Origin: Raillietiella orientalis
Taxonomy: Eukaryota
Assembly (NCBI GenBank): GCA_036172245.1
Contig: JAYWIR010000026.1
Coordinates: 806,001 to 870,000, forward strand
DNA: 64,000 nt
Reading direction: 5' to 3'
The position numbers and the translations under genes are program-made. Shown here in pieces: positions 16,327 to 64,000 of this stretch; the stretch's first letter is position 1, and the number at the start of each line of letters is the position of its first letter. The notes beneath the pieces are model-generated. The model was not told the DNA's origin. It made no database searches and worked only from the letters and a program-made list of their open reading frames with translations.

Positions 16327-16593
16327 ATCTTCTTATCTTCTTTCCTCGACATAAAAGAAGAGATGCAAGTCCTCTGATTCCGGCTGCACGTCAGGCGAGG
16401 AGGCGGGCAGGAATACAACAGGGTGTGCTTCATAACTTCGCTGCGATGGCCAAGGTTCGCCATCGAAGCTGAATTTCCATGCGCTGCAACGTCAGGAGGC
16501 CTAGACCACCATCACGACGCGGAGCGCACAAGTCCATCAAAGGGACTCGGGGCTTTCCCTTGCCCAAAGGGCGATGCAAAGGAGGTCCTTCGT
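16327..16593 (-). mobile_element. Short family C ORF2 fragment
   Basis: GKGKPRVPLMDLCAPRRDGGLGLLTL, homologous to 17800-18060 in the opposite orientation. Confidence 0.8.
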
Positions 16594-38100: not shown

Positions 38101-38375
38101 GAAGAGCCTTACGAAGGTTGGCTGCGAGGAAGGCTCCGGATGCATTTTAGGCCGATCCGAACTTCAGAAGTGCGTCCTCTGCAGCGGAGGAGCCACCAAA
38201 GTAGACGGGACGCAATTCTTAGAATCCCAGAAGGCGCATTCCGATTAAGAAGGAGGCATATGAACCGACCCCCAAGGTGGAAGCCGGCGGCGTGGGACGC
38301 GAGGGTGGAAATCTCTTATTCCTCGACACCGTGCACCTGGCAATTTTCATGGAGGAGGAAGTGCAGGTGGCTGAA
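35182..38375 (+). mobile_element. Mirror copy of the H / B / F-like nest
   Basis: Reverse complement of 3137-6330. Confidence 0.88.
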
Positions 38376-43780: not shown

Positions 43781-44214
43781 GAGCGGACCTTCGCCGAATA
43801 CGGGGGGCGGGCGATCCAAGGAAAACTGCTCGCAGAACTCTCGGACCGAGGCCTTTGAAAGGTCCCAATCCGGAAGACTCTGGAGCGTGATGCTACTCAG
43901 GAATTCGCGAAGGCGTTCGTTCGCACCTGAGAGTCGCGTCCAGTCCCCCGGCGGACGCCACTCCCTGAATGGCGGTCCCTTGTTGCGAGCCCGCATCTCG
44001 AAAATTAGCCGGGAATGGTCCGACAGCGTCGAGGCAATCTTCCCCCGTTTGCCGACCCGTGAACACAAGTCAGCGTCGAGGATGACGTGGTCAATGCTGC
44101 GGACCATTCCCCTCTCACCCGTTAACAAGTTGCGCGCACGCATGGCGGCGCACAACTCATTCATCGCGTTCACTTGTGTTTCAGGATCACCTGTTAGCAG
44201 GCAGAGATTGAAAT
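43781..44214 (-). mobile_element. Family E endonuclease C-terminal fragment (host of copy A3)
   Basis: FNLCLLTGDPETQVNAMNELC..SIDH..SDH, homologous to 61955-62385. Confidence 0.9.
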
Positions 44215-46417
44215 TTTTCACCCGGTCACGCCGGGGCGTTTATTGAAAATAAATCGGTCAAAGACAATGTCTTTAACCAAAGAAACGACAGGGAGAAAAG
44301 AGAAGTTACCGGCACACAGGTCTGGTTAACAAACCGCTTCCAACAACACTGAGGGAGTAGAGGGATAACAAACAAAAATCAAAATCTCGAGGGAGGGGTA
44401 ACATGTCTTTGGTGAAGCTCCGTACTCACGGGAATTCCAATAGAGAGCACCTAAAATGTTCCGGAGCCTAATAGGGCGAAAGTGGAAAGAAAAAAAAAAA
44501 AACATTTGAAGGGGGCGAGGGAAAAGGTTCACCGGGTGCGCTGTTGGGTATCGTCTGTAAACCGTCGACGTACGCTAGCGAGATCCCTTTTCGTATCCTC
44601 GGTCAATTGAGGCCATCTGGCGGCTCCTTCCATATAGAAAGATGCTTTGCTGATCACCTCTTGGTACTGCTTGGTGATTATCAGCGCCTGGCGGACGGAA
44701 ACTATCGCGCGTATGCAACCGATGATTGCAATCCTTGCGCTTAGTGACAGCCCGCTCGGCGTGAAGAATCGTCGCAGCAAATCTCTTGCGGTGTCCACGG
44801 GATGCATTAGTGCTGTTGCCAGCCTACGCCACAGTCCTTGTAGGACACCGCAGTCCAGAAGTAGGCGCGGAATCGACTCGGTCGATCCGCACCGAACGCA
44901 GTTCGCAGACGCAAGTCCCCCGGAGTCACGATGCCAACGCTCGTTGCACTGAAAACCCCAGTGAACGAAAAGCAGCACGGCTTGTTTCCAAGCAAGAAGG
45001 AGCAGCGAACTGTCGACACACTGTGGAGGGACTACAAGTTCTTCGGGGGTGACACCAAGTTCTTCTGCCCACCGGAGGAGTCCCTTTGCAGTAACACGAG
45101 GAGTGGCGGCGTCCGCCAGCTCACTCGTCTTCCAGGCGCCAAGGAGTTTGGTTTTTCCCACTATCGTGCAGGAAACCTCCCACCTCGCCGGTTGGTAACT
45201 GTCGTTTCTTGCCTCGAGGGCAGACAGCGCTGCGGCAAGAGGCGTGGCAGCCAGGGTAGAAAACTTCACCTCGTCCTGCAAAACTTCTTATAAGGATCAT
45301 GGAGAAAATTGGCGCAGGGGGCGAAGATCTTCAGGGCGTTTTCCTTGGAACGCCGCCCAGGATTCAACACACTCCTGCCAACAAGCTTCAAAGTTCATTG
45401 GGCGGCAGGAGATCCACGAGTAAGCTTCCAGAAGTGCGGTCAACTGCCGCAATGGAAACCCGAAACCCCGCTTCCTGTATTTAGTGCTTCGCAAAAGCGA
45501 GAGAAATCCTCCGCTGCCGGCGCATCTCCGCAGGAGAATGCGGGCTGGCACACACAGGGGGGATGTCCATAGCTGGGCACACAGTGCCAGCAGTCGGAAC
45601 TGCACCTGCAGTCCGATTCGCTCCATTGTCAGGATACCCAAACCAGCATCCCGACGCGGAGCAACCAAATCTTTAAGGCGGATCCTAAATCTCGCCGGAC
45701 CCTAGAGAACGTTCCTGAGCAGGCGTTTAGACCGCTGTTTCGCCCCATGGGGGGGTCCAAAACAAAAAACCAGGGACGGAAGAGGGGGGCCACAAAGGTG
45801 TTCCAAATAGTCGCCCGTTCCTGCAAGGTGAACTTGCCGTTAATGAACGGGCTGATGGCCAACTCTGCTTTCTAAAGACAGTCCGCCCACGCTTCGGCTG
45901 CGCCGACAGCGCCCAACGGAACGCCAAGGTACTTAAAGTACCCGCCCGTGGGGATCCTCAGACGGATAAAGTCGGACTGCCCCTCCCACGACGCACCCAC
46001 AGGAACGACCACGCTCTCCTCTCTGTTTACGCTCACGCCCGCTCCCCGACGAATCAGGTCGAAGAAATCCTCGACACTAGACGCCGGGGTGGACATGGGG
46101 AGCAGAAGAAGCAGGTCATCAGCGTAGGCGGCCACGGCAGGCGTACCCGGGGAGGAGCATGGCAAGTGAGACAGGGTCAGCCTGCACGCTCTCAGCACCA
46201 ACTCAAAGAAGATGCTAAAGAGCAACGGGCTCAAGCTGCCGCCCTGTGGGATGCCCCTACGCACGGGAATACCGTACACGCGGCAGCCGCTGAAAGTGAT
46301 GCAGGTTAGTGCGTGGCACCAGCAGGCGCGCAAATACAGCAGGAGTTCTGCCGGGAACCCAAGGCGTTCCATAAGCTCCAAGAGCAGCTTCTGGTTTACG
46401 CAGTCGAACGCCTTGTG
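44215..46417 (-). mobile_element. Family A copy A3, 3' part (RT to 3' end), degenerate
   Basis: Highly similar to 53838-56039 with a diverged 3' UTR; interrupted by D at HKAFD. Confidence 0.95.
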
Positions 46418-47823
46418 CGCTCTAGGGTGGACGTGTTTTCTCGGTGCTCCTCGTGCCAGGAAGTCTCCCCCAGTGCAAGCGTCGTGTGGTTCTGTGGTCG
46501 ATCAGCGAGCGATGCCTGACGCGACCACCAGGAATGGCCAGGGGGCAGCGGCAACGCCGCCCCCAGAGGCGATGGAGAGCCAGGGGGCGGCGGCAACGTC
46601 GCCCCCGGAGGCGATGGAGGTGGGGGCATCCACCCCCACAGAATCGGTCCCCGCTGCAGCGCGGGCGTGGAGCGCCGTTGTGTCGGCGCCATCGCCTGCA
46701 GCCGCGGTGGAATTGTCGGCCTATGTGGAGGAGGGGTACAACCCCTCATTGTTCTACAAGGTAGGCAATTTATATTCCTTAGAGAGCGCGCGCGCCTTCT
46801 CGAAGGGCATGCGCGCTCTCGATGTGAAAGAGGAGGAGCTTAGCGCTATGACCATCCGCAGCGGGGGTCAGTACGTTGAGGTCATCTGCAAACATGCAGA
46901 GCTGGCCCAACGACTGCTTAAAACCCCCGTTGTGATGGGGACGCGCAGGCTTCTCCCCACTACGGCGGACCGCAGCATGGTGGTCCACCTGTTAGGCGTG
47001 ACCGCGCGAATGCGCAAAGAACAGGTTCGCGCCGCTTTGGAACAGTTCGGAACGGTCCACGCGCAGTGGACGAAAGTAAGTCCTTTCGAGGACTACACGG
47101 GGCTGCAACACGGCCTCACTGCTGCGCGCGTGACCGTTCGGGAGGGCTGCACTCTTCCCCACAAACTGGTGGTCGAAGGCGAAACCGTCGACCTCTGGTA
47201 TGTGGGGAAGCCGAAATACTGCGGCTTCTGCAATACGTCGGGCCACCTCAAAAAGAGGTGTCCCAATGTGCAGTGCCAAGTATGCGGCACAATGGGCCAC
47301 ACGAGGAAGGTGTGCCCAAAAGCAGCAGTGCGGGTGGTTTCCAAGAGAAACCTTAAAAAACGCGCCCGGCTTCTGCAAAAAAGGCTGGCGGCGAAAGCTG
47401 CTGCGAAGGCTGTGCCCCCCGCGCCCAAGACCCAGGCCGCACCCGAGACCCCGCCGACAAACGCCGAAAAAGTTGAGGGAGCCGGCCAGGAGACTGGGTG
47501 GCAAGTGGCAACGGCCAAAAAATCAAAGAAGGAGAGGAGGATGGAAAAAAAAATCGCCTACCAACAGAAGAAGAAAGAGCAGGGTAGCGCGATAATTAAA
47601 GAGTGCAGCGTCGTTGTCGAACGCGTTCTCGATGTTGCCGAACGCTGCCGGAAAGAACTCGCCGCTACCGACAACCTCCCCTCTGTTGACACAGTCAACA
47701 GCGAGGGGAGCGAGCCGGCGGCGGCGTCCGTCATCGACACCACCATCGATGACGTAGCCTTCGCGCGAGCCGCGGAGGAGCTGGCAGCCTCCTTGCAGCC
47801 AGAACCCTCCACGGCCAGTAGGA
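46418..47823 (+). mobile_element. Family D copy: 5' UTR and ORF1 (ATG 46512), interrupted by E
   Basis: GGACGTGTTTT, 42-nt duplicated QGAAATxPPEAME unit, two CCHC knuckles. Confidence 0.93.
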
Positions 47824-50133
47824 GGACGTGTTTTTCCTTCACTCCCCAAAGAGTAGTAGGAAAGCGCTTTTTCTTCTGTGTGGTGTTTTGTGTACATCGT
47901 CGGTGTCCAATGGCCACGACGCCAGAGGACACCGCCATGGAGGTGGGAGTGGGGGAGGCTAGTTCGCCCCCACAGCCTACTGGAGCAGGGGCAGCCGCCC
48001 CGGAATCATCCCCGGCCACGCCGAGGACATGGAGCGCCATGGTGGCCGCGCCCAGCGCAGAAGCCATAGCGGAGATGGCCGCATACAAGGCCTCCGGGTA
48101 CAAGCCATCGCTTGTCTACCAGGTAGGCAACTTGTTCGACGGCCGGACAGCGCGCGCCTTCAGCAAAGCGTTGAAGGACGCGACTGTTAATGAGAAGGAT
48201 CTGGACGGCCTCTCCGTCCTCAGCGGCGGGCAGCGGGTCGAGGTGGTCTGCAAAGATGTCACCTTGGCTCACCGCCTAATCCATGCGCCGCTGAACGTAG
48301 ACGGCCGCAAGATCCTGCCAGTATCAATGGACCGCTCCGTGGTGGTCCACATGACTGGCATCACCAGCCGCATGACGCGGTCAGCGGTTGGTGAGGAATC
48401 GCGAAAGTACGGTGAGGTGCACGCACTGTGGCCGAAACCCTCCATTTTCGACGGCTTCGATAGCCTTTTTGGTGGGCAGGCTGCAGCGCGGGTCACCGTA
48501 CGGGAGAATTGTGGGCTTCCCCACAAACTACAGGTGGCGCAAGAAAACGTCGACCTGTGGTATGTAGGGAAGCCCCGGTATTGCGGGCATTGTGATACCG
48601 TGGGACACCTACGTAAAAGGTGTCTCAATATACAATGCCATTTGTGCGGGGAGCGGGGCCACGTTCGGCGCGTGTGCCCCAAACGCCCCACCCCGGTTCC
48701 CCCTGCCGCGAAAAAAGCGCAGGGGAAACGCGCTTCAAAGGTCTCTAGACCTAAAGTAGAAAAGGGCCAGCACAAGCCGCCAACACCTCAACCTCCGGAG
48801 CGTAAGGCGGAGGATAAACCTTCTGAAACGGTGGAAGGCGAAGAGGGATGGCAGCTTGTAGAGGCCAGAAAGCCGAGGAAACTCCCACCCGCGGAGAGCA
48901 AAGAGCGCAAGACGGCCGGCCGGTAAGCCGAAGAAACCCGGTCGGCGCTCTAAGACCATGCGGGAGTGTACGGTAGCACTGGAACGAATCGTCGTTCCCG
49001 AGATTGCCACCCGGAGCGTCGATCCTCCCCTTGCCGTTTCCGCTGCGCCCGAGGCTCGCGACAGCGAACCCTCTGTTTACACAGAGGGTGAGCCGCGCGA
49101 CATAGCGGCGGTCGAAGCCGCGGACGCCGCGTTCGCGCAAGCGGCGGAGGAGCTCGCGGTCACGCTGGCCGAGCGTGAGAACCCCTCGCGCAAGGCCGTG
49201 CGAAGGCCGGCTCCGGCGAAGAAGGCCCCCACAGGTGAGTTAGACCTGGGGGCCGGAAGCACATCCTCCTCCTCGGAGGCACCCCCCAGGAAGTGGGGAC
49301 GCAAGTCCCAGAAGCCCAGGAGGCGCCTCCCCTCCACCAGCGAGGAGGAGAAGACGGAAGCCGTCGCCAGCGTGGGAAATTCGGAGGAGGAATTCCCACG
49401 CTCGGAAGTCGTCGATGCGGCCACCCCCATGGAGGAGGGTGAACAGGGGGGTGAAGTCCCCCCTGCAGGCGCCGACCCTGAACATCCCGCCCCCATGGAG
49501 GAGGGCGAACAGGTAGGCGCGACTCCACCTGCGGGTGATCCGGCCGACGCGCCGGCACCGATGGAGGAGGGGGACCAGGTGCCTTCAGCACCTGACCCCC
49601 CTCCTCCACCTAGCGTCCCGCCCCAGCAGGTGGCGGACGCCGCACTGCCATCTTCCCAGGAGTAACACCTGGGCTCGCCAGTCGCCGTCGGATTCGCGCG
49701 GCCTGTTGGAATGTCAACGGGCTGCGCGACGACGGTAACAGGCGAGATACAGCCGACACCCTGCGTGAGCTCGACCTGGCCCTGCTGCAGGAGATCCACG
49801 TGATCACCGCGGCAGACGTCCAGGAGATCGAGACGATCGCGGGAGGTCGGCTGTACTGGCAATGCGGCATCCGCAACACCTGCGGGGTCGCGTTCTTCGT
49901 GAAGCCGGCCATCGACGCTGCCGTGAAGAACGTGCGCTTCGATGACGACGGTCGGGTCGGTCAGCTGACTCTCGGCTGGTCGGACTCGATCGATCTGATC
50001 GTCACGAATGTGTACGCCCCAACCGGTCAAAAGGGATACAGCAACCGTACCAGGCTGCTTGAATCCTTGAAGCGCGACTGGCTGGCGAAAACGAGCGTGC
50101 GGAAGGCTCACCTGATAGCGGGAGATTTCAATC
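47824..50133 (+). mobile_element. Family E 5' part: ORF1 (47910-49665, one frameshift near 48920) and endonuclease up to GDFN
   Basis: GGACGTGTTTTT, CCHC knuckles, PMEEG repeats, WNVNG, LLQEIH, NVYAP, AGDFN. Confidence 0.95.
50125..50133 (+). repeat. Target-site duplication ATTTCAATC (also 56040-56048, 61955-61963; minus strand 44206-44214)
   Basis: Exact 9-mer at each family A boundary. Confidence 0.95.
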
Positions 50134-50211
50134 GAGTGCGGACGTGTTTTTCTTCGCTCTCGTCTCCGTGCTTTCATCCGCTTCATCTTGGCGTCGTACA
50201 TTTTGACGACG

Positions 50212-52134
50212 ATGTCGACCCAACTTGAAGCTACTGAAGCTGGAGGAACAGCATCCGGATCTGCAATCGCGGAACCGACGGCCGCCTCCACTTCGTCTTT
50301 CTCGCCAATGGACAGGAGATTTGCTGACGTTGCTGCCACAGCAGCCGTCAAAGGGAAACCACTCGACGAGTCGGAGTTGCGGGCATACGTAGCCCAAGGC
50401 TATAGACCTGCTCTCCGATATAAGGTGAGTGGTTTTCTTTCTGCGCGCGACGGGAATCAGTTCAACGATGAACTGACGCGTGTTGGCGTGCGGGAGGAGG
50501 ACCTTCTCGCCATTATGCCCGTAAAAGACATGGGCTATTTCAAGGTGCGTTGCAAAGACGCTGCACTTGTGCAACGTTTGCTGCGCACCCCGTTGTCGAT
50601 CCGTGGCCAGAAGGTCTTCCCGGCCGCCATGGACGACTAATTTGTGGTGGAGATTTTCGACATCGAGTCGGAAATCTCCGATACTGATATTCGGAACGCG
50701 TGGGCAGAATTCGCCACAGTCCATACGCTGTGGAGGGTGCGTAGCAACCTCAAGGACTTCCCGTCCATACACAGCGGAGTCGCTGGAGTCCGGCTTACAA
50801 TGCCGGACCGCCGTCTGCTGCCCACGAAACTACAGGTGAAAGACACGGTCGTTCACCTGTGGTTCGTGGGCAAAGTAAAAACGTGCGAGCAATGCGGGAA
50901 GGAGGGGCATTGTTTGGATAAATGCCCCTCTGGAAAATGCCGTTATTGCAAACTATCCGGGCACCAATTGAAAAATTGCCCGGATCTTTTGCGAAAAAAG
51001 GCAGCCGCGGAGCTCCATTTTAAAAAACAAAGCGCGGATAAAAAGAAAAAATCTGCGAAAAAGCTGGAGACCCCACGGCAGAAATTCGGTAAAAACGCGA
51101 GGCGGAATGTCGCCCCAAAGCAGCAGGAAACCTCGCACGCGAAGCCCTGCGCACCCCCTCTCGCGGCAGGGGAGCCGCAAAAGAAAGGGTGCGGGGAATC
51201 CGGGGCAATGGTAAGTCCCCCTAGGCGCAATAGCTGTCCTTCCCAAGCACGCCCGGCTCTTTCGGAGTTCGAGCAACCGGCGGGGACGTCAATGGACAAC
51301 GGCGGTAAGGACACTTCCAGTACCGTCAGATCCATTCCCTCACCTCCTGCAGTGGCTGAGAAGCCCAAATCGGGTAAGAAGGGTTGTGCCGTGTCGACTT
51401 CGAAAGTTGGCAAAAAAAAATCCGCGTCGCGATCCAACACCGCGAAGGCGGAGAAGAATCTCACGCCGTCGCAGTCAGAGAGCAAGCTCTCGACTGGCGC
51501 GGATGCCATGCCAAAGAAGGGAGTAAAAGCCCTTCCGAAGGCAGCGTCCATGACGAGCGTGTCGAACCCATCGAAAGTGCTCCCGTTTAAAGACGCGGAT
51601 GGCTTCAAAGATGGCAATGGAGCACAATCTCCATTTACGGCGCCACGCGAAGTGAGGAACCGTAATGAAGTTAAGAAGACTTCAGCAAAGGTCCCTCGTG
51701 CAACTGCGCGTGAGCACGCTGAAAACGCGCGCGCCGGGAAAGCAGCCGTCACCAAAAGCGATGCCCTGGTGACGGAAAACGAAACCAGGACAGCTGTCAA
51801 TCCAGCAGAACCTGTCACTGCTTCGCGGAAGGCCGAAATCCGATCGAACATGCGCCGGTCGGACTCCGAAATGGATGCCGTTCCGATCACCGAGACGAGG
51901 ACAACTCGTTCGAAAGCGTGTGCGCGCCGATCAAAAGTAGGCAGCCAGGCAACGCTCGCCGCGAAGCAACGCGAAGTCTCCACGAAACCCGACGGGGTTC
52001 AGCCTGGCGTGGAGGCATTACATGCATGCAGCACGACAGAGGACGGTGGCGACCGTCCCCTCCAGCCAGTCGTGCTGCTCGCCGTCTGCTCGCCGGATAA
52101 AGCGAGCAAAAAGCCGCCACCTTCCCAGCAGTAA
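50212..52134 (+). pseudogene. A1 ORF1 (two CCHC knuckles) with a single nonsense codon
   Basis: TAA at 50638-50640 where A2 has TCA; CEQCGKEGH..CRYCKLSGH. Confidence 0.92.
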
Positions 52135-55100
52135 TGCGGGGAATCGCGTCTTCTCGTCGTCTGTCCGTAACGTGTTGGAACGTGAACGGAATACAGAACG
52201 ACGAGAAGAGGCGATTAGTAGCCAACGCCCTGCGCCCCTTCGACCTCGCGCTCCTGCAGGAGATTCACGTAATCTCCGACGAGCAGTCAGCCGAAATCGA
52301 GGATCGCGCAGGCGGAACGCTACATTGGCGGTGCGGCGGCGCACACACGTGCGGCGTCGCGTTCCTCGTAAGAGTAAAAATGGCGGAAGCGGTGCGTAGT
52401 GTTCGTTTCGATGACAACGGACGGATAGGCCAGCTTGTCATCAAGTGGTCCGAGTCCATCGATCTCGTCGTTACGAACGTCTACGCGCCGAGTGGCTCTC
52501 GCTACCTCGAAGAAAGAGTAGCTTTCTTTGGTGAGGTGCAGAGCCAGTGGCTCAACAACTCCGGTTTCCAAGTGGCGCACCTCGTCGCTGGGGACTTCAA
52601 CGTCCGCCTGCTCTCCGACGATTGGAGCCGCCCGAGGGAGCGCGCGCTGCCCATCGAGATGTGCGCGTCCGTGCACGCCGCCAACTTGATGGTCAGCGAA
52701 CCTGGAATGGAAAGATCGCTCGATCACGTTTTCCTCGATGAAAACCTGCATTCGCGTGTGGGCAGGAGAGGAAGATTGTTGACTAGGCTTTCTGACCACC
52801 ACAGGTTGGAGTTTGAGATCCTTCCGCCAGGCAGGGGGCCTCCGTTGCAAAACTGGAGGATGCAGGCGGATTGGCTTAGCCAACCGGAGGCTGCGGAGCA
52901 TCTACGTAGATACCTCCGAGGCTTTGCCATTCAAGAACTTGCGGACTGGGACGATCTCAAAAGATCTGTCCGCGAGTTCTGCTGCCAATTCCCCTTGCAC
53001 CGGCTTCCACGCGGTTTCGGAGAGGGCGTGGCCAACAGTAGAGACTTTCTGCAGGCCCGCACGTTTTCGAGACGCGCGGATGTCGGGCGTCTCGCGGAGT
53101 ACAAGGCGAGGGCCGAGCGCCAGGTCTGGGAGTCCGGAGCAGCATGCCTGTTGGACGACAAGGGCCAGGAATGTTCGGCCCCAGCCGAAGTACGCCGCAT
53201 TGTGGGACGCTACTACTCCTCGCTCTACGCGGATTCCCCGACGGAGGATATTCTTTCTGAGATACTCCTGTCTCAGGATGCTCGTGTTGTCGGCGAGGAG
53301 GAACGCGAACGTCTCGACGAGCCCTTCACGGCGGATGAATTTTCGTCCGCCATCGCTGGGCTGAAGAGACGAAAGGCGCCAGGCGAGGATGGGCTCCCTG
53401 CAGAGTTTTATCAGTGCTTTGCAGTGGAGCTCATTCCCTTGATGCTTAAACTCGCGAAGCTGATGAGTGAATCCGGGAATGTCCCTGATTCCTTCCGCTC
53501 AGCGAAGGTGCGTCTCCTGCCGAAAGGCGGAGACTTGCGCCAACTTAACAACTGGCGTCCGATCACCTTGGTGAACTCGGACGTCAAGTTGTTTTCCAAA
53601 CTGTGGGTCGCGCGGTTAGGAAGAATCGCGGAATCTGTGGTGAGCCCGGAACAAACCTACGCGGTTCCGGGACGATCCATGGAGGCGAACATCCTTTTCG
53701 CGCGTACATGGATGCAGCTGCAGGAAGTTGTGGCGCAGCAAAGCCAGGCTGCTGCGAACGTCACTGCCGCAGGCAAAAAGAACAGGCGCCGACGGCAGGA
53801 GGGAACGCCAGGTGCCTTGGCGGTCGCGGTCGATCTCCACAAGGCGTTCGACTGCGTAAACCAGAAGCTGCTTTTGGAGCTTATGGAACGCCTTGGGTTC
53901 CCGGCGCAACTCCTGCTGTATTGGCGCGCGTGCTGGCGCCACGCGCTAACCTGCATCACTTTTAGCGGCTGCCGCGTGTATGGTATTCCCGTTCGTAGGG
54001 GCATCCGACAGGGCGACAGCTTAAGCCCGTTGCTCTTCAGCATCTTCTTTGAGTTGGTGCTAAGAGCATACAGGCTGACGCTGTCTCACTTGCCAAGCTC
54101 CTGCCCGGGAACGCCTGCCGTGGCCGCCTACGCTGATGACCTGCTTCTTCTGCTTCCCATGTCCACCCCGGCGTCCAGTGTCGAGGATTTCTTCGACCTG
54201 ATTCGTCGGGGAGCGGGCGTGAGCGTGAACAGAGAGAAGAGCGTGGTCGTTCCTGTGGGTACGTCGTGGGAGGGGCAGTCCGACTGGATCCGCCTGGGGA
54301 TCCCCACGGGCGGGTACTTTAAGTACCTTGGCGTTCCGTTGGGCGCTTTCGGCGCAGCCGAAGCGTGGGCGGACTGTCTTCAGAAAGCAGAGTTGGCCAT
54401 CAGCCCGTTCTTTAACGGCAAGTTTACCTTGCAGGAACGGGCGACTATTTGGAACACCTTTGTGGCCCCTCTCCTCCGTCCCCTGTTTTTTGTTTTGGAC
54501 CCCCCCTATGCGGCAAAACAGCGGGCTAAGCGCCTGCTCAGGAACGCTCTCTGGGGTCCGGCGAGATCCAGGATCCGCCTTAAAGATTTGTCAGCTCCGC
54601 GTCGGGATGCTGGTTTGGGTATCCTGACAATGGAGCGAATCGGACTGCAGGTGCAGTTCCGACTGCTGGCACTGTGTGCCCAGCTATGGACATCCCCCCT
54701 GTGTGTGCCAGCTCGCATTCTCTTGCGGAGATGCGCCGGCAGCGGAGGATTTCTCTCGCTTTTGCCGGGCACTCAATACAGGAAGCGGGGTTTCGGGTTT
54801 CCATTGCGGCAGTTGACCGCACTTCTGGAAGCACACTCTTGGATCTCCTGCCGCCCAATGAACTTTGAAGCTTGGCGGCAGGAGTCTGTTGAATCCTGGG
54901 CGGCGTTCCAAGGAATACGCCCTGAAGATCTTCGCCCCCTGCGCCCATTTTTTCCACGATCCTTGGAAGAAGTACTGCAGGACGAGGTGAAGTTTTCTAC
55001 CCTGGCTGCCACGCCTCTTGCCGCAGCGCTGTCTGCCCTCAGGGCAAGAAACGACAGTTACCAACCGGCGAGGTGGGAGGTTTCCTGCACGATAGCGGGA

Positions 55101-55727
55101 AGAACCAAACTCCTTGGCACCTGGAAGACAAGTGAGTTGGCGGACGCCGCCACTCCTCGTGTTACTGCAAAGGGACTCCTCCGGTGGGCAGAAGAACTTG
55201 CTGTCATCCCCGAAGAACTTGTGGTCCCTCCACAGTGTATGGACAGTTCGCTGCTTCCCCTTGCTTGGAAACAAGCCGTGCTGCTTTTCGTTCACTGGGG
55301 TTTTCAGTGCAACGAGCGTTGGCATCGTGACTCCGGGGGACTTGCGTCTGCGAACTGCGTTCGGTGCGGATCGAGGGAGTCGATTCCGCACCTACTTCTG
55401 GACTGCGGTGTCCTACAAGGACTGTGGCGTAGGCTGGCAACAGCACTATTGCATCCCGTGGACACCGCAAGAGACTTGCTGCGACGATTCTTCACGCCGA
55501 GCGGGCTTTCACTAAGAGCAAGGATTGCAACCATCGGTTGCATACGCGCGATAGTTTCCGTCCGCCAGGCGTTGGTAATCAACGGACAGCACCAAGAGGT
55601 AATCAGCAAAGCATCCTTCTACATGGGAGCATCCGCTAGATGGCCTCATTTGACAGAGGAGACAAAGAGGAATCTCGCCGCAATACACCGCCGGTTTACA
55701 CACCCTCATCAGCGGCCAACCCGGTGA
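52134..55727 (+). CDS. A1 ORF2: intact APE endonuclease / reverse transcriptase / CCHC protein, 1197 aa
   Basis: WNVNG, LQE, NVYAP, GDFN, LDH, SDH; KAPGEDG, WRPITL, DLHKAFD, QGDSLSP, YADD, KYLG; CVRC..HLLLDC. Confidence 0.98.
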   Translation: MRGIASSRRLSVTCWNVNGIQNDEKRRLVANALRPFDLALLQEIHVISDEQSAEIEDRAGGTLHWRCGGAHTCGVAFLVRVKMAEAVRSVRFDDNGRIGQLVIKWSESIDLVVTNVYAPSGSRYLEERVAFFGEVQSQWLNNSGFQVAHLVAGDFNVRLLSDDWSRPRERALPIEMCASVHAANLMVSEPGMERSLDHVFLDENLHSRVGRRGRLLTRLSDHHRLEFEILPPGRGPPLQNWRMQADWLSQPEAAEHLRRYLRGFAIQELADWDDLKRSVREFCCQFPLHRLPRGFGEGVANSRDFLQARTFSRRADVGRLAEYKARAERQVWESGAACLLDDKGQECSAPAEVRRIVGRYYSSLYADSPTEDILSEILLSQDARVVGEEERERLDEPFTADEFSSAIAGLKRRKAPGEDGLPAEFYQCFAVELIPLMLKLAKLMSESGNVPDSFRSAKVRLLPKGGDLRQLNNWRPITLVNSDVKLFSKLWVARLGRIAESVVSPEQTYAVPGRSMEANILFARTWMQLQEVVAQQSQAAANVTAAGKKNRRRRQEGTPGALAVAVDLHKAFDCVNQKLLLELMERLGFPAQLLLYWRACWRHALTCITFSGCRVYGIPVRRGIRQGDSLSPLLFSIFFELVLRAYRLTLSHLPSSCPGTPAVAAYADDLLLLLPMSTPASSVEDFFDLIRRGAGVSVNREKSVVVPVGTSWEGQSDWIRLGIPTGGYFKYLGVPLGAFGAAEAWADCLQKAELAISPFFNGKFTLQERATIWNTFVAPLLRPLFFVLDPPYAAKQRAKRLLRNALWGPARSRIRLKDLSAPRRDAGLGILTMERIGLQVQFRLLALCAQLWTSPLCVPARILLRRCAGSGGFLSLLPGTQYRKRGFGFPLRQLTALLEAHSWISCRPMNFEAWRQESVESWAAFQGIRPEDLRPLRPFFPRSLEEVLQDEVKFSTLAATPLAAALSALRARNDSYQPARWEVSCTIAGRTKLLGTWKTSELADAATPRVTAKGLLRWAEELAVIPEELVVPPQCMDSSLLPLAWKQAVLLFVHWGFQCNERWHRDSGGLASANCVRCGSRESIPHLLLDCGVLQGLWRRLATALLHPVDTARDLLRRFFTPSGLSLRARIATIGCIRAIVSVRQALVINGQHQEVISKASFYMGASARWPHLTEETKRNLAAIHRRFTHPHQRPTR

Positions 55728-56048
55728 TCATTGCCCTACCCTCCATAAACTAAATTTGTATTTTCTTTTACACCCGCGTCCCCATAGGCTCCGGAACATT
55801 TGAGGTGCTCATCGTTTAAATCCCCGTGAGTACGGAGCCTAACCAAAAACCCTTTTCCCTTCCCTCCAGTTTTTGATTTTTGTTTGTTTCCCCTCATTCC
55901 CCCCACGCTGCGAGCGGTTTGTTTACCAGGCCTGCGTGCCGGTAATTTTTCTATGTTCTCCGTCGTTCTCTTGGTTGGGGACATTGTCCCTGACCAGTTT
56001 ATTATTATTAATAAACGCCCCGGCGTGACCGGGTGATAAATTTCAATC

Positions 56049-59000
56049 GAGTGCGGACGTGTTTTTCTTCGCTCTCGTCTCCGTGCTTTCATCCGCTTCA
56101 TCTTGGCGTTGTACATTTTGACGACGATGTCGACCCAACTTGAAGCTACTGAAGTTGGAGGAACAGCATCTGGATCTGCAATCGCGGAACCGACGGCCGC
56201 CTCCACTTCGTCTTTCTCGCCAATGGAGAGGAGTTTTGCTGACGTTGCTGCCACAGCAGCCGTCAAAGGGAAACCTCTCGACGAGTCGGAGTTGCGGGCA
56301 TACGTAGCCCAAGGCTATAGACCTGCTCTCCGATATAAGGTGAGTGGTTTTCTTTCTGCGCGAGACGGGAATCAGTTCAACGATGAACTGACCCGTGTTG
56401 GCGTGCAGGAGGAGGACCTTATCGCCATTATGCCCGTAAAAGACATGGGCTATTTCAAGGTGCGTTGCAAAGACGCTGCACTTGTGCAACGCTTGCTGCG
56501 CACCCCGTTGTCGATCCGTGGTTAGAAGGTCTTCCCGGCCGCCTTGGACGACTCATTTGTGGTGGAGATTTTCGACATCGAGTCGGAAATCTCCGATACT
56601 GATATTCGGAACGCGTTGGCGAAATTCGCCACGGTCCATGCGCTGTGGAGGGTGCGTAGCAACCTCAAGGACTTCCCGTCCATACACAGCGGAGTCGCTG
56701 GAGTCCGGCTTACAATACCGGACCGCCGTCTGCTGCCCACCAAAGTACAGGTGAAAGACACAATCGTTCACCTGTGGTTCGTGGGCAAAGTAAAAACGTG
56801 CGAGCAATGCGGGAAGGAGGGGCATTGTTTGGATAAATGCCCCTCTGGAAAATGCCGTTATTGCAAACTATCCGGGCACCAATTGAAAAATTGCCCGGAT
56901 CTTTTTCGAAAAAAGGCAGCCGCGGAGCTCCATTTTAAAAAACAAAGCGCGGATAAAAAGAAAAAATCTGCGAAAAACCTGGAGACCCCACGGCAGAAAT
57001 TCGGTAAAAACGCGAGGCGGAATGTCGCCCCAAAGCAGCAGGAAACCTCGCACGCAAAGCCCTGCGCACCCCCTCTCGCGGCAGGGGAGCCGCAAAAGAA
57101 CGGGTGCGGGGAATCCGGGGCAATGGTAAGTCCCCCTAGGCGCAATAGCTGTCCTTCCCAAGCACGCCCAGCTCTCTCGGAGTTCGAGCAACCGGCGGGG
57201 ACGCCAATGGACAACGGCGGTAAGGACACTTCCAGTACCGTCAGATCCATTCCTTCACCTCCTGCAGTGGCTGAGAAGCCCAAATCGGGTAAGAAGGGTT
57301 GTGCCGTGTCGACTTCGAAAGTCGGCAAAAAAAAATCCGCGTCGCGATCAAACACCGCGAAAGCGGAGAAAAATCTCACGCCGTCGCAGTCGGAGAGCAA
57401 GCTCTCGACTGGCGCGGATGCCATGCCAACGAAGGGATTAAAAGCCCTTCCGAAAGCAGCGTCCATGACGAGCGTGTCGGAGCCATCGACAGTGCTCCCG
57501 TCCAAAGACGCGGATGGCTTCAAAGATGGCCATGGAGCACAATCTCCATTTACAGCGCCACGCGAAGTGAGGAACCGTAATGAAGTAAAGAAGACTTCAG
57601 CAAAGGTCCCTCGTGCAACTGCGCGTGAGCACGCTGAAAACGCGCGCGCCGGGAAAGCAGCCGTCACCAAAAGCGATGCTCTGGTGACGGAAAACGAAAA
57701 CAGGACAGCTGTCAATCCAGCAGAACCTGTCACTGCTTCGCGGAAGGCCGAAACCCGATCGAATATGCGCCGGTCGGACTCCGAAATGGATGCCGTTCCG
57801 ATCACCGAGACGAGGACAACTCGTTCGAAAGCGTGTGCGCGCCGATCAAAAGTAGGCAGCCAGGCAACGCTCGCCGCGAAGCAACGGTAAGTCTCCACGA
57901 AACCCGACGGGATTAAGCCTGGCGTGGAGGCATTACATGCTTGCAGAACGACGGAGGACGGTGGCGACCGTCCCCTCCAGCCAGTCGTGCTGCTCGCCGT
58001 CTGCTCGCCGGATAAAGCGAGCAAAAAGCTGCCACCTTCCCAGCAGTAATGCGGGAAATCGCGTCTTCTCGTCGTCTGTCCGTAACGTGTTGGAACGTGA
58101 ACGGACTGCAGAACGACGAGAAGAGGCGATTAGTAGCCAACGCCCTGCGCCCCTTCGACCTCGCGCTCCTGCAGGAGATTCACGTAATCTCCGACGAGCA
58201 GGCAGCCGAAATCGAGGAGCGCGCAGGCGGAACGCGACATTGGCGGTGCGGCGGCGCACACACGTGCGGCGTCGCGTTCCTCGTAAGAGGAAAAATGGCG
58301 GAAGCGGTGCGTAGTGTTCGTTTCGATGACAACGGACGGATAGGCCAGCTTGTCATCAAGTGGTCCGAGTCCATCGATCTCGTCGTTACGAACGTCTACG
58401 CGCCGAGTGGCTCTCGCTACCTCGAAGAAAGAGTAGCTTTCTTTGGTAAGGTGCAGAGCCAGTGGCTCAACAACTCCGGCTTCCAAGTGGCGCACCTCGT
58501 CGCTGGGGACTTCAACGTCCGCCTGCTCTCCGACGATTGGAGCCGCCCGAGGGAGCGCGCGCTGCCCATCGAGATGTGCGCGTCCGTGCACGCCGCCAAC
58601 TTGATGGTCAGCGAACCTGGAATGGAAAGATCGCTCGATCACGTTTTCCTCGATGAAAACCTGCATTCGCGTGTGGGTAGGAGAGGAAGATTGTTGACTG
58701 AGCTTTCTGACCACCACAGGTTGGAGTTTGAGATCCTTCCGCCAGGCAGGGGGCCTCGGTTGCAAAGCTGGAGGATGCAGGCGGATTGGCTTAGCCAACC
58801 GGAGGCTGCGGAGCATCTACGTGGATACCTCCGGGGCTTTGCCATTCAAGAACTTGCGGACTGGGACGATCTCAAAAGATCTGTCCGCGAGTTCTGTTGC
58901 CAATTCCCCTTGCACCGGCTTCCACGCGGTTTCGGAAAGGGCGTGGCCAACAGCAGAGACTTTCTGCAGGCCCGCACGTTTTCGAGACGCGCGGATGTCG

Positions 59001-61954
59001 GGCGTCTCGCAGAGTACAAGGCGAGGACCGAGCGCCAGGTCTGGCAGTCCGAAGCAGCAGACCTGTTGGACGACAAGGGCCAGGAATGTTCGGCCCCAGC
59101 CGAAGTACGCCGCATTGTGAGACGCTACTACTCCTCGCTGCACGCGGAATCCCCGACGGAGGATATTCTTTCTGAGATACTCCTGTCTCAGGATGCTCGT
59201 GTTGTCGGCGAGGAGGAACGCGAACGTCTCGACGAGCCCTTCACGGCGGATGAATTTTCGTCCGCCATCGCTGGGCTGAAGAGACGAAAGGCGCCAGGCA
59301 AGGATGGGCTCCCTGCAGAGTTTTATCAGTGCTTTGCAGTGGAGCTCATTCCCTTGATGCTTAAACTCGCGACGCTGATGAGTGAATCCGGGAATGTCCC
59401 TGATTCCTTCCGCTCAGCGAAGGTGCGTCTCCTGCCGAAAGGCGGAGACTTGCGCCAACTTAACAACTGGCGTCCGATCACCTTGGTGAACTCGGACGTC
59501 AAGTTGTTTTCCAAGCTGTGGGTCGCGCGGTTAGGAAGAATCGCGGAATCTGTGGTGAGCCCGGAACAAACCTACGCGGTTCCGGGACGATCCATGGAAG
59601 CGAACATCCTTTTCGCGCGTACATGGATGCAGCTGCAGGAAGTTGTGGCGCAGCAAAGCCAGGCTGCTGCGAAAGTCACTGCCGCAGGCAAAAAGAACAG
59701 GCGCCGACGGCAGGAGGGAACGCCAGGTGCCTTGGCGGTCGCGGTCGATCTCCACAAGGCGTTCGACTGCATAAACCAGAAGCTGCTTTTGGAGCTTATG
59801 GAACGCCTTGGGTTCCCGGCGCAACTCCTGCTGTATTTGCGCGCGTGCTGGCGCCACGCGCTAACCTGCATCACTTTTAGCGGCTGCCGCGTGTATGGTA
59901 TTTCCGTTCGTAGGGGCATCCGACAGGGCGACAGCTTAAGCCCGTTGCTCTTCAGCATCTTCTTTGAGTTGGTGCTAAGAGCATACAGGCTGACGCTGTC
60001 TCACTTGCCAAGGTCCTGCCCGGGAACGCCTGCCGTGGCCGCCTACGCTGATGACCTGCTTCTTCTGCTCCCCATGTCCACCCCGGCGTCCAGTGTCGAG
60101 GATTTCTTCGACCTGATTCGTCGGGGAGCGGGCGTGAGCGTGAACAGAGAGAAGAGCGTGGTCGTTCCTGTGGGTACGTCGTGGGAGGGGCAGTCCGACT
60201 GGATCCGCCTGGGGATCCCCACGAACGGGTACTTTAAGTACCTTGGCGTTCCGTTGGGCGCTTTCGGCGCAGCCGAAGAGTGGGCGGACTGTCTTCAGAA
60301 ATCAGAGTTGGCCATCAGCCCGTTCTTTAACGGCAAGTTTACCTTGCAGGAACGGGCGACTATTTAGAACACCTTTGTGGCCCCCCTCCTGCGTCCCCTG
60401 TTTTTTGTTTTGGACCCCCCCTATGCGGCAAAACAGCGGGCTAAGCGCCTGCTCAGGAACGCTCTCTGGGGTCCGGCGAGATCCAGGATCCGCCTTAAAG
60501 ATTTGTCAGCTCCGCGTCGGGATGCTGGTTTAGGTATCCTGACAATGGAGCGAATCGGACTGCAGGTGCAGTTCCGACTGCTGGCACTGTGTGCCCAGCT
60601 ATGGACATCCCCCCGTGTGTGCCAGCTCGCATTCTCCTGCGGAGATGCGCCGGCAGCGGAGGATTTCTCTCGCTTTTGCCGGGCACTCAATACAGGAAGC
60701 GGGGTTTCGGTTTTCCATTGCGGCAGTTGACCGCACTTCTGGAAGCACTCTCTTGGATCTCCTGCCGCCCAAGGAACTTTGAAGCTTGGCGGCAGGAGTC
60801 TGTTGAATCCTGGGCGGCGTTCCACGGAATACGCCCTGAAGATCTTCGCCCCCTGCGCCAATTTTTTCCACGATCCTTGGAAGAAGTACTGCAGGACGAG
60901 GTGAAGTTTTCTACCATGGCTGCCACGCCTCTTGCCGCAGCGCTGTCTGCCCTCGAGGCAAGAAACGACAGTTACCAACCGGCAAGGTGGGAGGTTTCCT
61001 GCACGATAGCGGGAAGAACCAAACTCCTTGGCACCTGGAAGCCAAGTGAGTTGGCGGACCCCGCCACTCCTCGTGTTACTGCAAAGGGACTCCTCCGGTG
61101 GGCAGAAGAACTTGGTGTCACCCCCGAAGAACTAGTAGTCCCTCCACAGTGTATGGACAGTTCGCTGCTCCCCCTTGCTTGGAAACAAGCCGTGCTGCTT
61201 TTCGTTCACTGGGGTTTTCAGTGCAACGAGCGTTGGCATCGTGACTCCGGGGGACTTGCGTCTGCGAACTGCGTTGGGTGCGGATCGACGGAGTCGATTC
61301 CGCACCTACTTCTGGACTGCGGTGTCCTACAAGGACTGTGGCGTAGGCTGGCAACAGCACTATTGCATCCCGTGGACACCGCAAGAGACTTGCTGCGACG
61401 ATTCTTCACGCCGAGCGGGCTTTCACTAAGCGCAAGGATTGCAACCATCGGTTGCATGCGCGCGATAGTTTCCGTCCGCCAGGCGTTGGTACTCAACGGA
61501 CAGCACGAAGAGGTAATCAGCAAAGCATCCTTCTACATGGGAGCATCCGCTAGATGGCCTCAATTGACAGAGGAGACAAAGAGGAATCTCGCCGCAATAC
61601 ACCGCCGGTTTACACACCCTCATCAGCGGCCAACCCGGTGATCATTGCCCTACCCTCCATAAACTAAATTTGTATTTTCTTTTTACACCCGCGTCCCCAT
61701 AGGCTCCGGAACATTTTAGGTGCTCATCGTTTAAATCCCCGTGAGTACGGAGCCTAACCAAAAACCCGTTACCCTTCCCTCCAGTTTTTGATTTTTGTTT
61801 GTTTCCCCTCATTCCTCCCACGCTGCGAGCGGTTTGTTTACCAGGCCTGCGTGCCGGTAATTTTTCTATGTTCTCTGTCGTTCTGTTGGTTAAGGACATT
61901 GTCCCTGACCAGTTTATTATTATTAATAAACGCCCCGGCGTGACCGGGTGATAA
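56049..61954 (+). mobile_element. Full-length family A element A2 (5906 bp), inactivated
   Basis: Tandem with A1. ORF1 stops at 56523 and 57888; ORF2 TAG at 60365 and a frameshift near 60612. Confidence 0.97.
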
Positions 61955-64000
61955 ATTTCAATCTCCGCCTGCTAACAGGTGAGCCGGAAACACAAGTGAA
62001 CGCGATGAACGAGTTGTGCGCCGCCATGCGTGCGCGCAACTTGTTCTCGGGTGAGAGGGGAATGGTCCGCAGCATCGACCACGTCTTCCTCGACGCTGCC
62101 CTGTGTTCACGGGTCGGCAAACGGGGGAGGGTTGCGTCAACGTTGTCGGACCATTTCCGGTTAATTTTCGAGATGCGGCCTCGCGACAAAGGACCGCCAT
62201 TCAGAGACTGGCGTCTGCCGGGGGACTGGACGCGACTCTCAGGTGCGAAGGAACACCTTCGCGAATACCTGAGAGGCGTCACGCTCCGGAATCTCCAAGA
62301 CTGGGACCTTTTTAAGGAATCGGTCCGGGAATTCTGCGAGCAGTTCCCCCTGGACCGCCTGCCCTCCGGATTCGGCGAGGGTCCTCGCAACCATCGGGCC
62401 TATTTACAGGCCCGTAGGTACGAACGAACCCCTAATGTCCGTCGCCTGGCCGAGTACCGCGCCGGGGCCGAACGCCAAGCCTGGCAATCCGGGTCGGCCA
62501 GCTTGCTGGACGACCAGGGCCGGGAATGTTCGTCCCCGGCGTCGGTACGGCATCTCGTGCGGAGCTATTATTCCTCCCTTTACGCCAGGGCGCCCCCGGA
62601 TCAAGATGCCTCTCGGCTCTTGCTTCCGGATGGTGCCCCGGCAATAGGGGAGGAGGAGTCGTTAAGCCTCGATGAGCCTTTTACCACCGGCGAAATTCTC
62701 GCCGGTATCAAAAGGCTCAAGAGGCGGAAAGCTCCAGGGGAAGACGGCTTGCCCGCGGAGTTCTATCAGAGCTTCGCGGTAGAGCTGGCACCCCTGCTGC
62801 TTCAGCTGACAAGGCTGATCAGAGACGAAGGCGATGTTCCCGCCTCGTTTCGGTCAGCCAGAGTGAGGCTCCTGCCGAAAGGGGGAGACCTCAGGGATTT
62901 AAAGAACTGGCGTCCGATCACGATCGTGAATACGGACGCCAAGTTGATCGCAGGGTTATGGGCTTAGCGTCTGGGGCAGGTGGCAGAATCCGTAATTAGC
63001 CCGGAGCAGACTTATGCTGTTCCCGGGCGAAGTATGGATGCCAACCTCTTCTTCGCGAGCACGTGGATGCACGCGCAGAGGTGTCAAAAGGAAGGGAAAG
63101 GAAAAATCGGCAACCCCACTTTGGGGCCGCCAGCAGGGCAGGGAATGGATTCCCGGGCGGGGAAGGGGGCCTTAGCGCTCGCAGTCGATCTCCATAAGGC
63201 GTTCGACTGTGTTGACCAGGGGCTTTTGTTGGAGCTCCTGGGTCGCATGGGCTTCCCACCCTCCTTGATCAACTACCTGCGCTCCTGCTGGCGCCATGCG
63301 ATAGTTTCCGTCTCTTTCAGCGGTCAGAAGGTGCATGGCGTGCCGGTGCGGCGGGGCATCAGGCAGGGAGATAGCCTGAGTCCCCTGCTCTTCAGCACCT
63401 ACTTTGAGTTGGTGCTGAGAGCCTACAGGGTGACTTTGGCCTCCTTGCCTAGCTCGTGTCCCGGCACGCCCGCCGTAGCAGCCTATGCCGACGACCTTCT
63501 GCTCCTGTTACCTATGTCCACCCCGGCGAAGGCGGTCGGAGACTTCTTCGATCTCCTCAGCCGTGGGACCGGACTGCAGGTCAACAGGGCGAAGTCGTCG
63601 GTGGTGCCAGTAGGTGCGGCGTGGGCAGGGCAGCAGGACTGGGTCCGTCTGGGGATCCCCACGGCCAGGTGCCTCAAGTACCTTGGTGTGCCGTTGGGTG
63701 ACTACTCCCCTGCGGAAGCGTGGTCCAGCTGTCTTCCAAAAGTCGTGACGGCGATCGGCCCGTTCCTGGAAGGCAAGTTTCACTTGCCGGAACGGGCCGC
63801 GGTTTGGAACGCCTTCGCGGCCCCCATCCTCCGCCCCTTGCTTTTTGTTTGCCCCGCCCCCAGAGAATGCAAAAAGAGGACGAAGGACCTCCTCCGCATC
63901 GCCCTTTGGGGCAAGGGGAGGCCCCGAGTCCCTCTGCAGGACTTGTGCGCTCCGCGTCGGGACGGCGGCCTTGACCTCCTGACGCTGGAGCGCGTGGAAA
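61955..64000 (+). mobile_element. Family E ORF2 continuation (endonuclease end and RT), runs off window
   Basis: Resumes FNLRLLTGEPETQ exactly where 50133 stopped; TAG at 62965; DLHKAFD, QGDSLSP, YADD. Confidence 0.95.

Follow-up and report, generated by a model that had tools for sequence, protein, structure and literature searches.

Three described groups of retrotransposons lie closest to the locus reported here. The Tx1 clade is presented in the available portion of PMC4494074 as an animal group of long interspersed nuclear elements (LINEs) found inside other transposons: Tx1 in the piggyBac element Tx1D, Tx1-Mar in Mariner-N4_AMi, Tx1-8_Crp and Tx1-4_AMi in long terminal repeat (LTR) retrotransposons, and Tx1-9_AMi approximately 300 bp into Harbinger elements. 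Zepp and ZeppL, L1 elements of green algae (Chlorella, Coccomyxa, and Chlamydomonas), form nested clusters that are thought to be centromeric and to target existing copies, according to excerpts of PMC8226300, PMC3446292 and PMC9940879. The R1Bm endonuclease is characterized in an extract of PMC1919474 as a sequence-specific apurinic/apyrimidinic endonuclease (APE) of a LINE specific for ribosomal DNA (rDNA). In this study, a 64,000-nucleotide stretch of Raillietiella orientalis DNA (GenBank assembly GCA_036172245.1, contig JAYWIR010000026.1, positions 806,001 to 870,000; hereafter the window) was analyzed. Its DNA is of eukaryotic type, without prokaryotic character, and is packed with fragments and full copies of related L1-like non-LTR retrotransposons that are inserted into one another. 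The analysis centered on a full-length element, A1, and on the codons of its GDFN endonuclease motif, where a preliminary description had proposed that wobble positions serve as marks of self and non-self. We consider it probable that several of the families are target-specific and that the synonymous differences between them are ordinary between-family divergence, and not a proven self/non-self code.

A fixed target word and a precise 3′ junction are features of the R1/R2 and TRAS1 LINEs, in which the bases flanking the nick decide cleavage; the endonuclease of TRAS1 is a sequence-specific APE, as is that of R1Bm, and the endonuclease of R2 is restriction-like. Outside the LINEs, the homing endonucleases of introns and inteins recognize the codons of conserved protein motifs and tend to tolerate wobble changes. 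Target-specific LINEs and nested clusters are already known, and this locus differs in that several related LINE families take conserved coding words of each other as targets.

Anatomy of element A1

A1 (50134-56039, plus strand) is the best-preserved element copy in the window. It has the 5′ end GAGTGCGGACGTGTTT and the 3′ end ...CCCCGGCGTGACCGGGTGATAA; its start reads GAGTGCGG directly after the host target word, and its 3′ terminus is ...AATAAACGCCCCGGCGTGACCGGGTGATAA. Both of its open reading frames (ORFs) are intact, and the ORF1 stop overlaps the ORF2 start at 52134. ORF1 (50644-52134, 496 aa) contains two CX2CX4HX4C (CCHC) knuckles, seen directly in the translation, and a Pfam search of it returned no family at E≤0.001. 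ORF2 (52134-55727, 1197 aa) matched Exo_endo_phos (1.9e-12, aa 15-222) and RVT_1 (2.3e-21, aa 463-734). The layout is that of an L1-type element: in ORF2 an APE-like endonuclease at the N-terminus precedes a reverse transcriptase (RT), ORF1 lies upstream, LTRs are absent, and the 3′ end is defined while 5′ truncation varies.

The GDFN(V) codons of A1, GAC TTC AAC GTC, lie at 52593-52604 (plus strand) in the APE endonuclease domain of ORF2, and the bases flagged in the preliminary description are 52593-52602. The GDFN of A1 aligned with that of the human L1 endonuclease chains 2v0s and 8sp5 (PDB sequence matches, 8.5e-06 to 9.4e-05), and the RT aligned with human L1 ORF2p (PDB sequence match, 4.6e-17), with VDLHKAFD placed on IDAEKAFD. 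Judged from these sequence matches, A1 is an intact L1-like LINE with an APE-type endonuclease, and the flagged bases are codons of its GDFN catalytic motif.

Two further A copies were found. A2 (56049-61954, plus strand) is a tandem second copy with a period of 5915 nt, 97.6-98% identical to A1, in which ORF1 is shortened to 448 aa and a break after aa 772 splits ORF2 into pieces of 772 and 350 aa; its GDFN codons are at 58508. A3 (44215-46417, minus strand) runs from the HKAFD motif to the 3′ end, is approximately 91% identical to A1 and A2, and is cut on its 5′ side by element D2 at L|HKAFD. In a large protein collection the nearest proteins to A were L1-like at 20-29% identity, many of them with RVT_1, Exo_endo_phos and zf-RVT, and the nearest Atlas clusters were also L1-like with the same domain set, including zf-RVT. 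Among the 27 matches to A, the nearest named proteins came from plants and one charophyte alga, and no Chlorella, Coccomyxa or Chlamydomonas protein was present.

Eight 3′ ends in the window end in ...GTGAWAA or GTAATAA directly before host sequence. Families with widely different ORFs were observed to have a common 3′ terminus, AATAAACGCCCC..GG..GGGTGA(A/T)AA, made up of a small hairpin and a short A-rich tail (4287-4441, 15276-15297, 22971-22992, 42894-42920, 44215-44236, 56018-56039, 61933-61954 and 19190-19218), and several also have a common 5′ start with GGACGTGTTT (1129, 40630, 46429, 47824, 50140 and 56055). RNA folding predicted a terminal hairpin in five 3′ ends; the A ends beat their shuffles (z -3.9 and -3.5), and the B and Z ends folded no better than shuffles (z 0.2, 0.8 and -1.2).

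Insertion of family A into the GDFN codons of family E

The target word of A is ATTTCAATC, which lies inside the GDFN codons of family E, and the insertion is in sense orientation. The 5′ part of host E1 (47815-50133, plus strand) has its 5′ end at approximately 47815-47823, ORF1 at approximately 48342-48680 and ORF2 from 49665, and it reads GGA GAT TTC AAT C at the A1 5′ junction (50121-50133). From there the order is host GGA G, ATTTCAATC, A1 ending in ...GTGATAA, ATTTCAATC, A2, ATTTCAATC, and then TCCGCCTGCTAACAGG, which resumes the E1 frame (N L R L L T G). The copies of the word occupy 50125-50133 at the A1 5′ junction, 56040-56048 between A1 and A2, and 61955-61963 after A2 (plus strand), and the 3′ part of E1 (61964-64000, plus strand) continues as TCC GCC TGC... 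(N LRLLTGE). The target-site duplication of A in E1 is therefore 9 bp, with ATTTCAATC on both sides of the insert. Because this duplication restores the target, the A1-A2 tandem would be explained by the entry of another A element into the restored word.

The same word was found at other A junctions. The 3′ end of A3 is followed by ATTTCAATC (44206-44214) and then by host E2 (43785-44205). Among public sequencing runs, one DNA run contains A (run X1, 0.69 of the words) and no RNA run was listed; two contigs of run X1 go from the A 3′ end and ATTTCAATC into a third E-like flank, which by hand count differs from E1 at 5 of 30 bases and from E2 at 4 of 30. A contig that starts at 50104 and covers only 30 host bases before the A1 junction was left out of the bridging counts.

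The degenerate word GAYTTYAAY has six matches in the window, four of them in an endonuclease context: GATTTCAAT in E1 (50124), GACTTCAAC in A1 (52593) and A2 (58508), and GATTTCAAC in a D-like element (19640-19632, minus strand). The other two encode an unrelated HDFN in duplicated arms. The GDFN word of A itself, GGGGACTTCAACGTCCGC, differs from its target at three of nine bases. The preliminary description had set the GAC TTC AAC G of A (52593-52602) against its target GAT TTC AAT C; both were read as described, with A2 the same as A1 at 58508, and the GAT TTC AAC C of the uninserted D-like copy (19631-19640, minus strand) was found as well.

Insertion sites of families B and D and a fourth site

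The 3′ tails of family B end in ...GTGAAAA and are antisense to their hosts, such that the host sense strand ends in ...TTCGACG, within codons of the RFDD motif, and is followed by the complement of the B tail. All four B junctions read TTCGACG|TTTTCAC, with the last host bases at 4442 (minus), 37070 (plus), 22970 (plus) and 26458 (minus). The tail at locus 1 (4287-4441, plus strand) is antisense to host H_a (4442-4943, minus strand) and is copied at 37070/37071; B_a (22971-23442, minus strand; ...CCGGGTGAAAA) is antisense to host H1 (20679-22970, plus strand); and B_b (25876-26457, plus strand), which retains the ORF2 C-terminus and the tail, is antisense to host H2 (26458-26934, minus strand). 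All three hosts end in TTCGACG, and truncated tails were seen for this family. In contrast, the four empty RFDD sites all read TTC GAT GAC (19832-19824, minus strand; 49938, in E1; 52407; and 58322). The contrast of TTC GAC G in hit hosts with TTC GAT G in uninserted sites was thus recovered in full, as had been claimed. TTYGAYGAY has 13 matches in the window, four in the RFDD context and nine in unrelated contexts.

The junctions at 4442 and 37070 are one junction, duplicated within a 99% inverted duplication. The remaining three B events look separate, since host H1 is only 61-64% identical to H_a and H2 (H_a and H2 are 83% identical to each other) and the tails and hosts are discordant: the locus-1 tail has 82% identity to B_a and only 73% to B_b, yet the locus-1 host stands closer to H2.

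Elements D1 (1-1140, minus strand) and D2 (46418-47814, plus strand; the 5′ part of a D element) are 95% identical, and both are antisense to hosts of different families, C1 (1141-3133, plus strand) and A3, respectively, with their 5′ ends against CACAAG. Both D junctions adjoin CAC AAG, at 1141 and at 46417 (minus), which places the insertion at L|HKAFD in RT motif A. Empty HKAFD sites read CAT AAG at 17109 in C3, at 63193 in E1, and at 40370-40365 (minus strand) in C2; CAC AAG is uninterrupted at 53838 and 59753. The codons of the preliminary description, CAC AAG in D-hit hosts and CAT AAG in empty C and E copies, were accordingly right, but two positions needed correction by one base, from 17108 to 17109 and from 40366 to the span 40370-40365 (minus strand). 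Its remark that A1 and A2 carry CAC and are yet empty holds at 53838 and 59753.

A fourth fixed site lies in ORF1 of D-type elements at GCGTCGTYGT, where element Z shows its 3′ junction and H1 its 5′ junction, both antisense. Z (15276-16564, minus strand), the 3′ part of an A-like element (...CCGGGTAATAA), lies antisense in D3 (14876-15275, plus strand) right after GCGTCGTCGT. The 5′ end of H1 (20679, plus strand) adjoins GCGTCGTTGT of the D-like copy (20678-20669), and the same GCGTCGTTGT is uninterrupted in D2 (47608-47617), where the site is empty. When the Z and H1 junctions are combined, the words overlap by 10 bp, which fits a target-site duplication. The synonymous variant is GTC in occupied D3, GTT in the occupied D-like copy and GTT in empty D2.

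The D-like element (19219-20678, minus strand) comprises the end of ORF1 and aa 1-296 of ORF2, with an empty RFDD at 19832-19824 and an empty GDFN (GAT TTC AAC CTG) at 19640-19629. The 3′ end of C3 (19218) interrupts it at approximately aa 296, and the 5′ end of H1 (20679) does so on its upstream side. C3 (16597-19218, plus strand) ends in ...GAGTGGTAA. C2 (38749-40627, minus strand; empty HKAFD, CAT AAG ACG, at 40370-40362) is cut at approximately aa 485 by the 5′ end of element X1 (40622-40630, plus strand).

In summary, independent copies share the same target and position for A (three junctions in the window plus two contigs), B (four junctions, three of them distinct), D (two) and Z/H1 (two). 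The pre-insertion site could be rebuilt for A in E1 and from the combination of Z and H1, while B and D show one junction per event in the window. By hand arithmetic, two independent insertions at the same base of a 1.5-3.6-kb gene have a chance of approximately 1 in 10^3 per pair. As far as can be read from the junction sequences, site-specific insertion into one another's coding motifs is real for several families, and this premise of the preliminary description is supported. Other insertions in the window, namely C1 in F (3133/3134), C3 in the D-like element (19218/19219) and W (24075/24076), have no shared site, and neither do E1 (in D2 ORF1) and E2/Y (in the endonuclease of element X1).

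With regard to the last of these, the 3′ end of Y/E2 (...CCAGGGTGATAA; 42893-42896) was observed to cut the endonuclease of element X1 at approximately aa 62. One contig of sequencing run X1, at 85% likeness, joins E1-like position 49854 to 42896, within 2-3 nt of the equivalent position. These joins faintly hint at a possible fifth fixed site, that of Y/E2 in element X1.

Synonymous codons at occupied and empty sites

To weigh the codon pattern, copies that are not independent were merged: the junctions at 4442 and 37070 (inverted duplication) and the elements A1 and A2 (98% tandem copies). With these duplicates merged, Fisher tests within the window gave p=0.10 for B (3 versus 3), p=0.10-0.33 for A and p=0.40-0.43 for D, and B reached p=0.029 only when all eight copies were counted. 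The association of codon variant with occupied or empty state, which had been put forward as a check across all genomic copies, is therefore not significant within the window. E2+A3 and E1+A2, in which host (88%) and insert (91%) are about equally diverged, could also be one old event. The six distinct RFDD sequences can be divided 3:3 in 10 ways, and 6 of these divisions give at least one perfectly discriminating column in the 27 nt before the junction; the true division into occupied and empty sites gives just one.

The divergence between families was used as the background. Codon identity at conserved residues between families is 0.44-0.58, and the probability that all three of the D, F and N codons are identical between a pair of families is 0.085-0.195. 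A and E1 share one of these three codons against a background of 0.44-0.46, such that the motif of A is not diverged beyond background, and the mismatch of A and E at two of three codons is what background divergence predicts. The codons in question are also the usual ones of A, in which GAC (30 of 51) and AAC (29 of 31) are the majority codons; the A target in host E carries that family's minority codons, GAT (15 of 51) and AAT (6 of 21). Where the protein motif is conserved, only synonymous positions are free to differ. Neither an empty family E copy nor a B or D copy that retains an RFDD or HKAFD motif lies in the window, so self-avoidance is examinable for A alone.

With two or three independent events per site, Fisher p values of 0.10-0.43 and mismatch as the default between families, the claim that wobble positions act as self/non-self marks is unsupported. 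The preliminary description had itself held that the occurrence of both variants at occupied sites at background frequency would count against it, and both are occupied at the Z/H1 site (GTC in D3 and GTT in the D-like copy), which was not on its list. Ordinary family divergence is, from the codon comparisons, a sufficient explanation of the pattern, and we infer that selection on the wobble bases is absent.

Several observations weigh against this conclusion. Every listed contrast goes in the proposed direction, with C at all occupied B sites and T at all empty ones. C1 (CAC, occupied) contrasts with C2 (CAT, empty) even though the two are 92% identical and only 8% of their synonymous codons differ. 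The discriminating bases lie within 2-3 nt of the putative B nick, and at the D 5′ junction itself, and a sequence-specific APE nuclease could be sensitive at those bases. The window gives no power to exclude a wobble effect. With respect to target specificity, E2 shows the target word in its 3′ copy only, which the element could have brought along; some of the nest has been rearranged (host halves are missing and 13.7 kb are duplicated in inverted orientation), and not every junction is a clean insertion.

Alternative explanations

The alternative that survives best, unlikely as we judge it to be, is an adaptive wobble code, in which families in mutual attack on catalytic-motif codons have their synonymous choice selected for self-avoidance and escape. 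The direction of the contrasts fits this idea (GAC in 4 of 4 B hosts against GAT in 4 of 4 empty sites; the A word against its target at 3 of 9 bases; CAC in C1 against CAT in C2, C3 and E1), and any family whose own motif matched its target word would disable itself. The hits are also reciprocal, with E containing A containing D containing E containing A, which suggests that the activity of several families against one another overlapped in time. However, the contrasts lose significance after merging of duplicates, mismatch is the default between families, and the codons of A are its usual ones. The victim, E, has not escaped, as 2 of 2 window copies are hit, while A1 and A2 carry the hit-type CAC and are empty, and both variants are occupied at Z/H1. 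In addition, most genomic LINE copies are probably dead on arrival, and selection to avoid hits should then be weak. The wider form of the idea is a reciprocal hyperparasitic network, in which endonucleases would have evolved to cut words of approximately 10 bp in the GDFN, RFDD or RT motif A codons or the ORF1 of rivals; a mutual attack still under way would be recorded in the nest E > A > D > E > A, and synonymous choice, as the only route left for escape and self-avoidance, would be selected. This, too, we regard as improbable.

It is very unlikely that the recurrent junctions descend from a small number of old composite blocks, multiplied by segmental duplication or recombination in a repeat-rich region, and not from repeated site-specific integration. 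The 13.7-kb inverted duplication (99%) does copy one B junction, E2+A3 and E1+A2 align across the junction (host 88%, insert 91%), loci 1 and 2 have the common order F, B tail, H, and many expected host halves are missing. Against this, D1 and D2 occupy hosts from two families; H1, one of the hosts hit by B, has only 61-64% identity to H_a and H2, and the similarities of B tails and hosts are discordant between loci. The single target word between A1 and A2 is as expected for re-insertion in a regenerated target, and Z and H1 show opposite ends (3′ and 5′ junction) at one site.

The slimmest chance is given to the idea that the junction-proximal bases came from the insertion itself (a co-transcribed flank as in rDNA-specific LINEs, untemplated bases or repair) and are not a property of the host, such that the difference from empty sites would follow from insertion and would not have caused it, for although B and D show one junction per event with no pre-insertion sequence to rebuild, the terminal base at the 5′ end of D varies (A in D1 and G in D2) as in sloppy 5′ joining, and 3 of the 18 bases that follow the junction differ between C1 and C2, compared to approximately 8% overall, the 5′ copy of ATTTCAATC at A in E1 is host-derived and equal to the 3′ copy, the GTGAWAA/GTAATAA tails that end directly before host sequence in eight junctions place CGTCGAA on the host side, and the relatives of A3, A1 and A2, also read CAC.

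Organization of the nest

The nest holds at least eight related LINE families and is up to seven levels deep on its right side, where the order is C2 (minus) > element X1 (plus) > E2/Y (minus) > A3 (minus) > D2 (plus) > E1 (plus) > A1 and A2 (plus). Hits are reciprocal in this part (43785-64000), with insertions of A in E, of D in A and of E in D, so that the families have taken turns in entering each other; the other halves of the nested hosts lie beyond the window. A 904-aa ORF at 46212-48926 is not one gene: ORF1 of D2 runs in frame into the 5′ untranslated region and ORF1 of the inserted E1, with ORF1-like segments at 46980-47318 and 48342-48680 and the E1 5′ end at approximately 47815.

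The inverted duplication (1141-14871 versus 40370-26641; 13.7 kb) is 99.08% identical and copies one B junction. Its outermost 700 nt (1141-1850 versus 40370-39661) are approximately 92% identical and the remainder approximately 99.9%; this jump suggests either a breakpoint that lies inside two distinct copies of family C, through recombination or conversion, or a fold-back of the assembly. A stretch of low GC content at 6400-14500, mirrored at 27000-35100, has 46-48% GC compared to 55-64% elsewhere and no long ORFs; it contains an internal inverted repeat (9070-9751 versus 13143-12474, 78%) and is not recognizably LINE-derived.

Between 23442 and 25876, the arrangement of two B tails, the ORF1-bearing element F and tail W requires deletions or recombination. 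These pieces meet head-to-head at 23442/23446, and the host halves that a clean nest would show are missing (region 22970-26460). H1 and B_b were considered as the two ends of one element. This was rejected, as the D-like left flank and the H2 right flank form no single host site, and B tails have no blastn similarity to the tails of Z or A.

Public contigs were also searched for the 3′-end word CCCCGGCNTGACCGGGTGA. It occurred at 68 metagenome and 73 prokaryote-genome loci, all chance matches, and none of the 141 loci had a tblastn match to ORF1 or ORF2 of A or matched the extended 3′ end. The contigs of sequencing runs X1-X3, aligned to 36500-56100, gave at least 879 letter differences, at least 217 loose ends and at least 1109 pieces. 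Cover by run contigs is low at 36500-38400. Runs X2 and X3, from the same study as run X1, match only 38516-38552 and 44366-44508, at very high depth and with AT-rich foreign flanks, and these are probably chance matches to the DNA of another organism.

Proposed mechanism of insertion

Target specificity with ordinary codon divergence, the reading that we prefer, can be put as a model. The endonuclease of each family would nick a fixed word of approximately 9-10 bp, and reverse transcription would be primed there (target-primed reverse transcription, TPRT); both the cleavage specificity and the priming are what we infer from the junctions. The endonuclease of A1 would cut the target-word sequence GATTTCAATCTC / GGAGATTTCAATCTCCGC, and A would land in sense orientation in ATTTCAATC of the family E GDFN codons with a 9-bp duplication that regenerates the target. 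B would land antisense, with its tail primed, on the TPRT model, from the host strand after TTCGACG of the RFDD codons. D would land antisense at L|HKAFD of RT motif A, and Z and H1 antisense at GCGTCGTYGT of D ORF1. The conserved words of multicopy elements would serve as landing pads in a safe-haven strategy, as in other target-specific LINEs, and synonymous differences would decide which family happens to match a given word.

Discussion

If this plain reading holds, LINE-into-LINE targeting at conserved coding words joins the catalog of target-specific retrotransposons. The locus would also offer natural pairs of endonuclease and target with 9-10-bp words (ATTTCAATC, the TTCGACG nick site and GCGTCGTYGT) for the study of APE-nuclease specificity. 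An arms race in which selfish elements compete through the synonymous codons of their own catalytic motifs would be new if true. The value of the codon check is that a striking pattern turned out to be what default divergence predicts, and 64 kb is too small to test such an arms race. A full-text search found no paper on LINEs aimed at the catalytic-motif codons of other LINEs; Repbase and most subscription journals were outside its scope.

The homing endonucleases resemble the families of the window in that a selfish element is aimed at the DNA of an invariant motif, which cannot easily mutate away. They differ in that their tolerance of wobble changes is the opposite of the proposed discrimination, and their enzymes and mobility mechanism are unrelated. 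The R1/R2-type LINEs are alike in their fixed word and precise 3′ junction, but their target is a host gene and not a retrotransposon.

As far as the available parts of the Zepp literature go, the likeness lies in L1-type LINEs that are heaped, together with other LINE families, into GC-rich clusters spanning tens of kb. The seven-level nest, like Zepp/ZeppL, is a localized cluster formed by nested insertion into existing copies. However, in those accounts one Zepp family inserts into itself and leaves mostly 3′ ends in tandem, whereas at least eight families, distinct fixed words and full-length copies are found here. The likeness is one of description.

The Tx1 group, as it appears in the available part of its description, is an APE LINE with an L1-type ORF2 that uses one fixed position in another multicopy transposon as a harmless landing pad, and in these respects the elements of the window are similar. 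The comparison is one of descriptions, and the nearest proteins that carry a name are from plants and one charophyte alga, compared to an animal clade for Tx1. In contrast to the Tx1 targets given there, the targets in this window are LINEs of the same broad group, the words are those that code for catalytic motifs (GDFN and RT motif A), and the hits are reciprocal.

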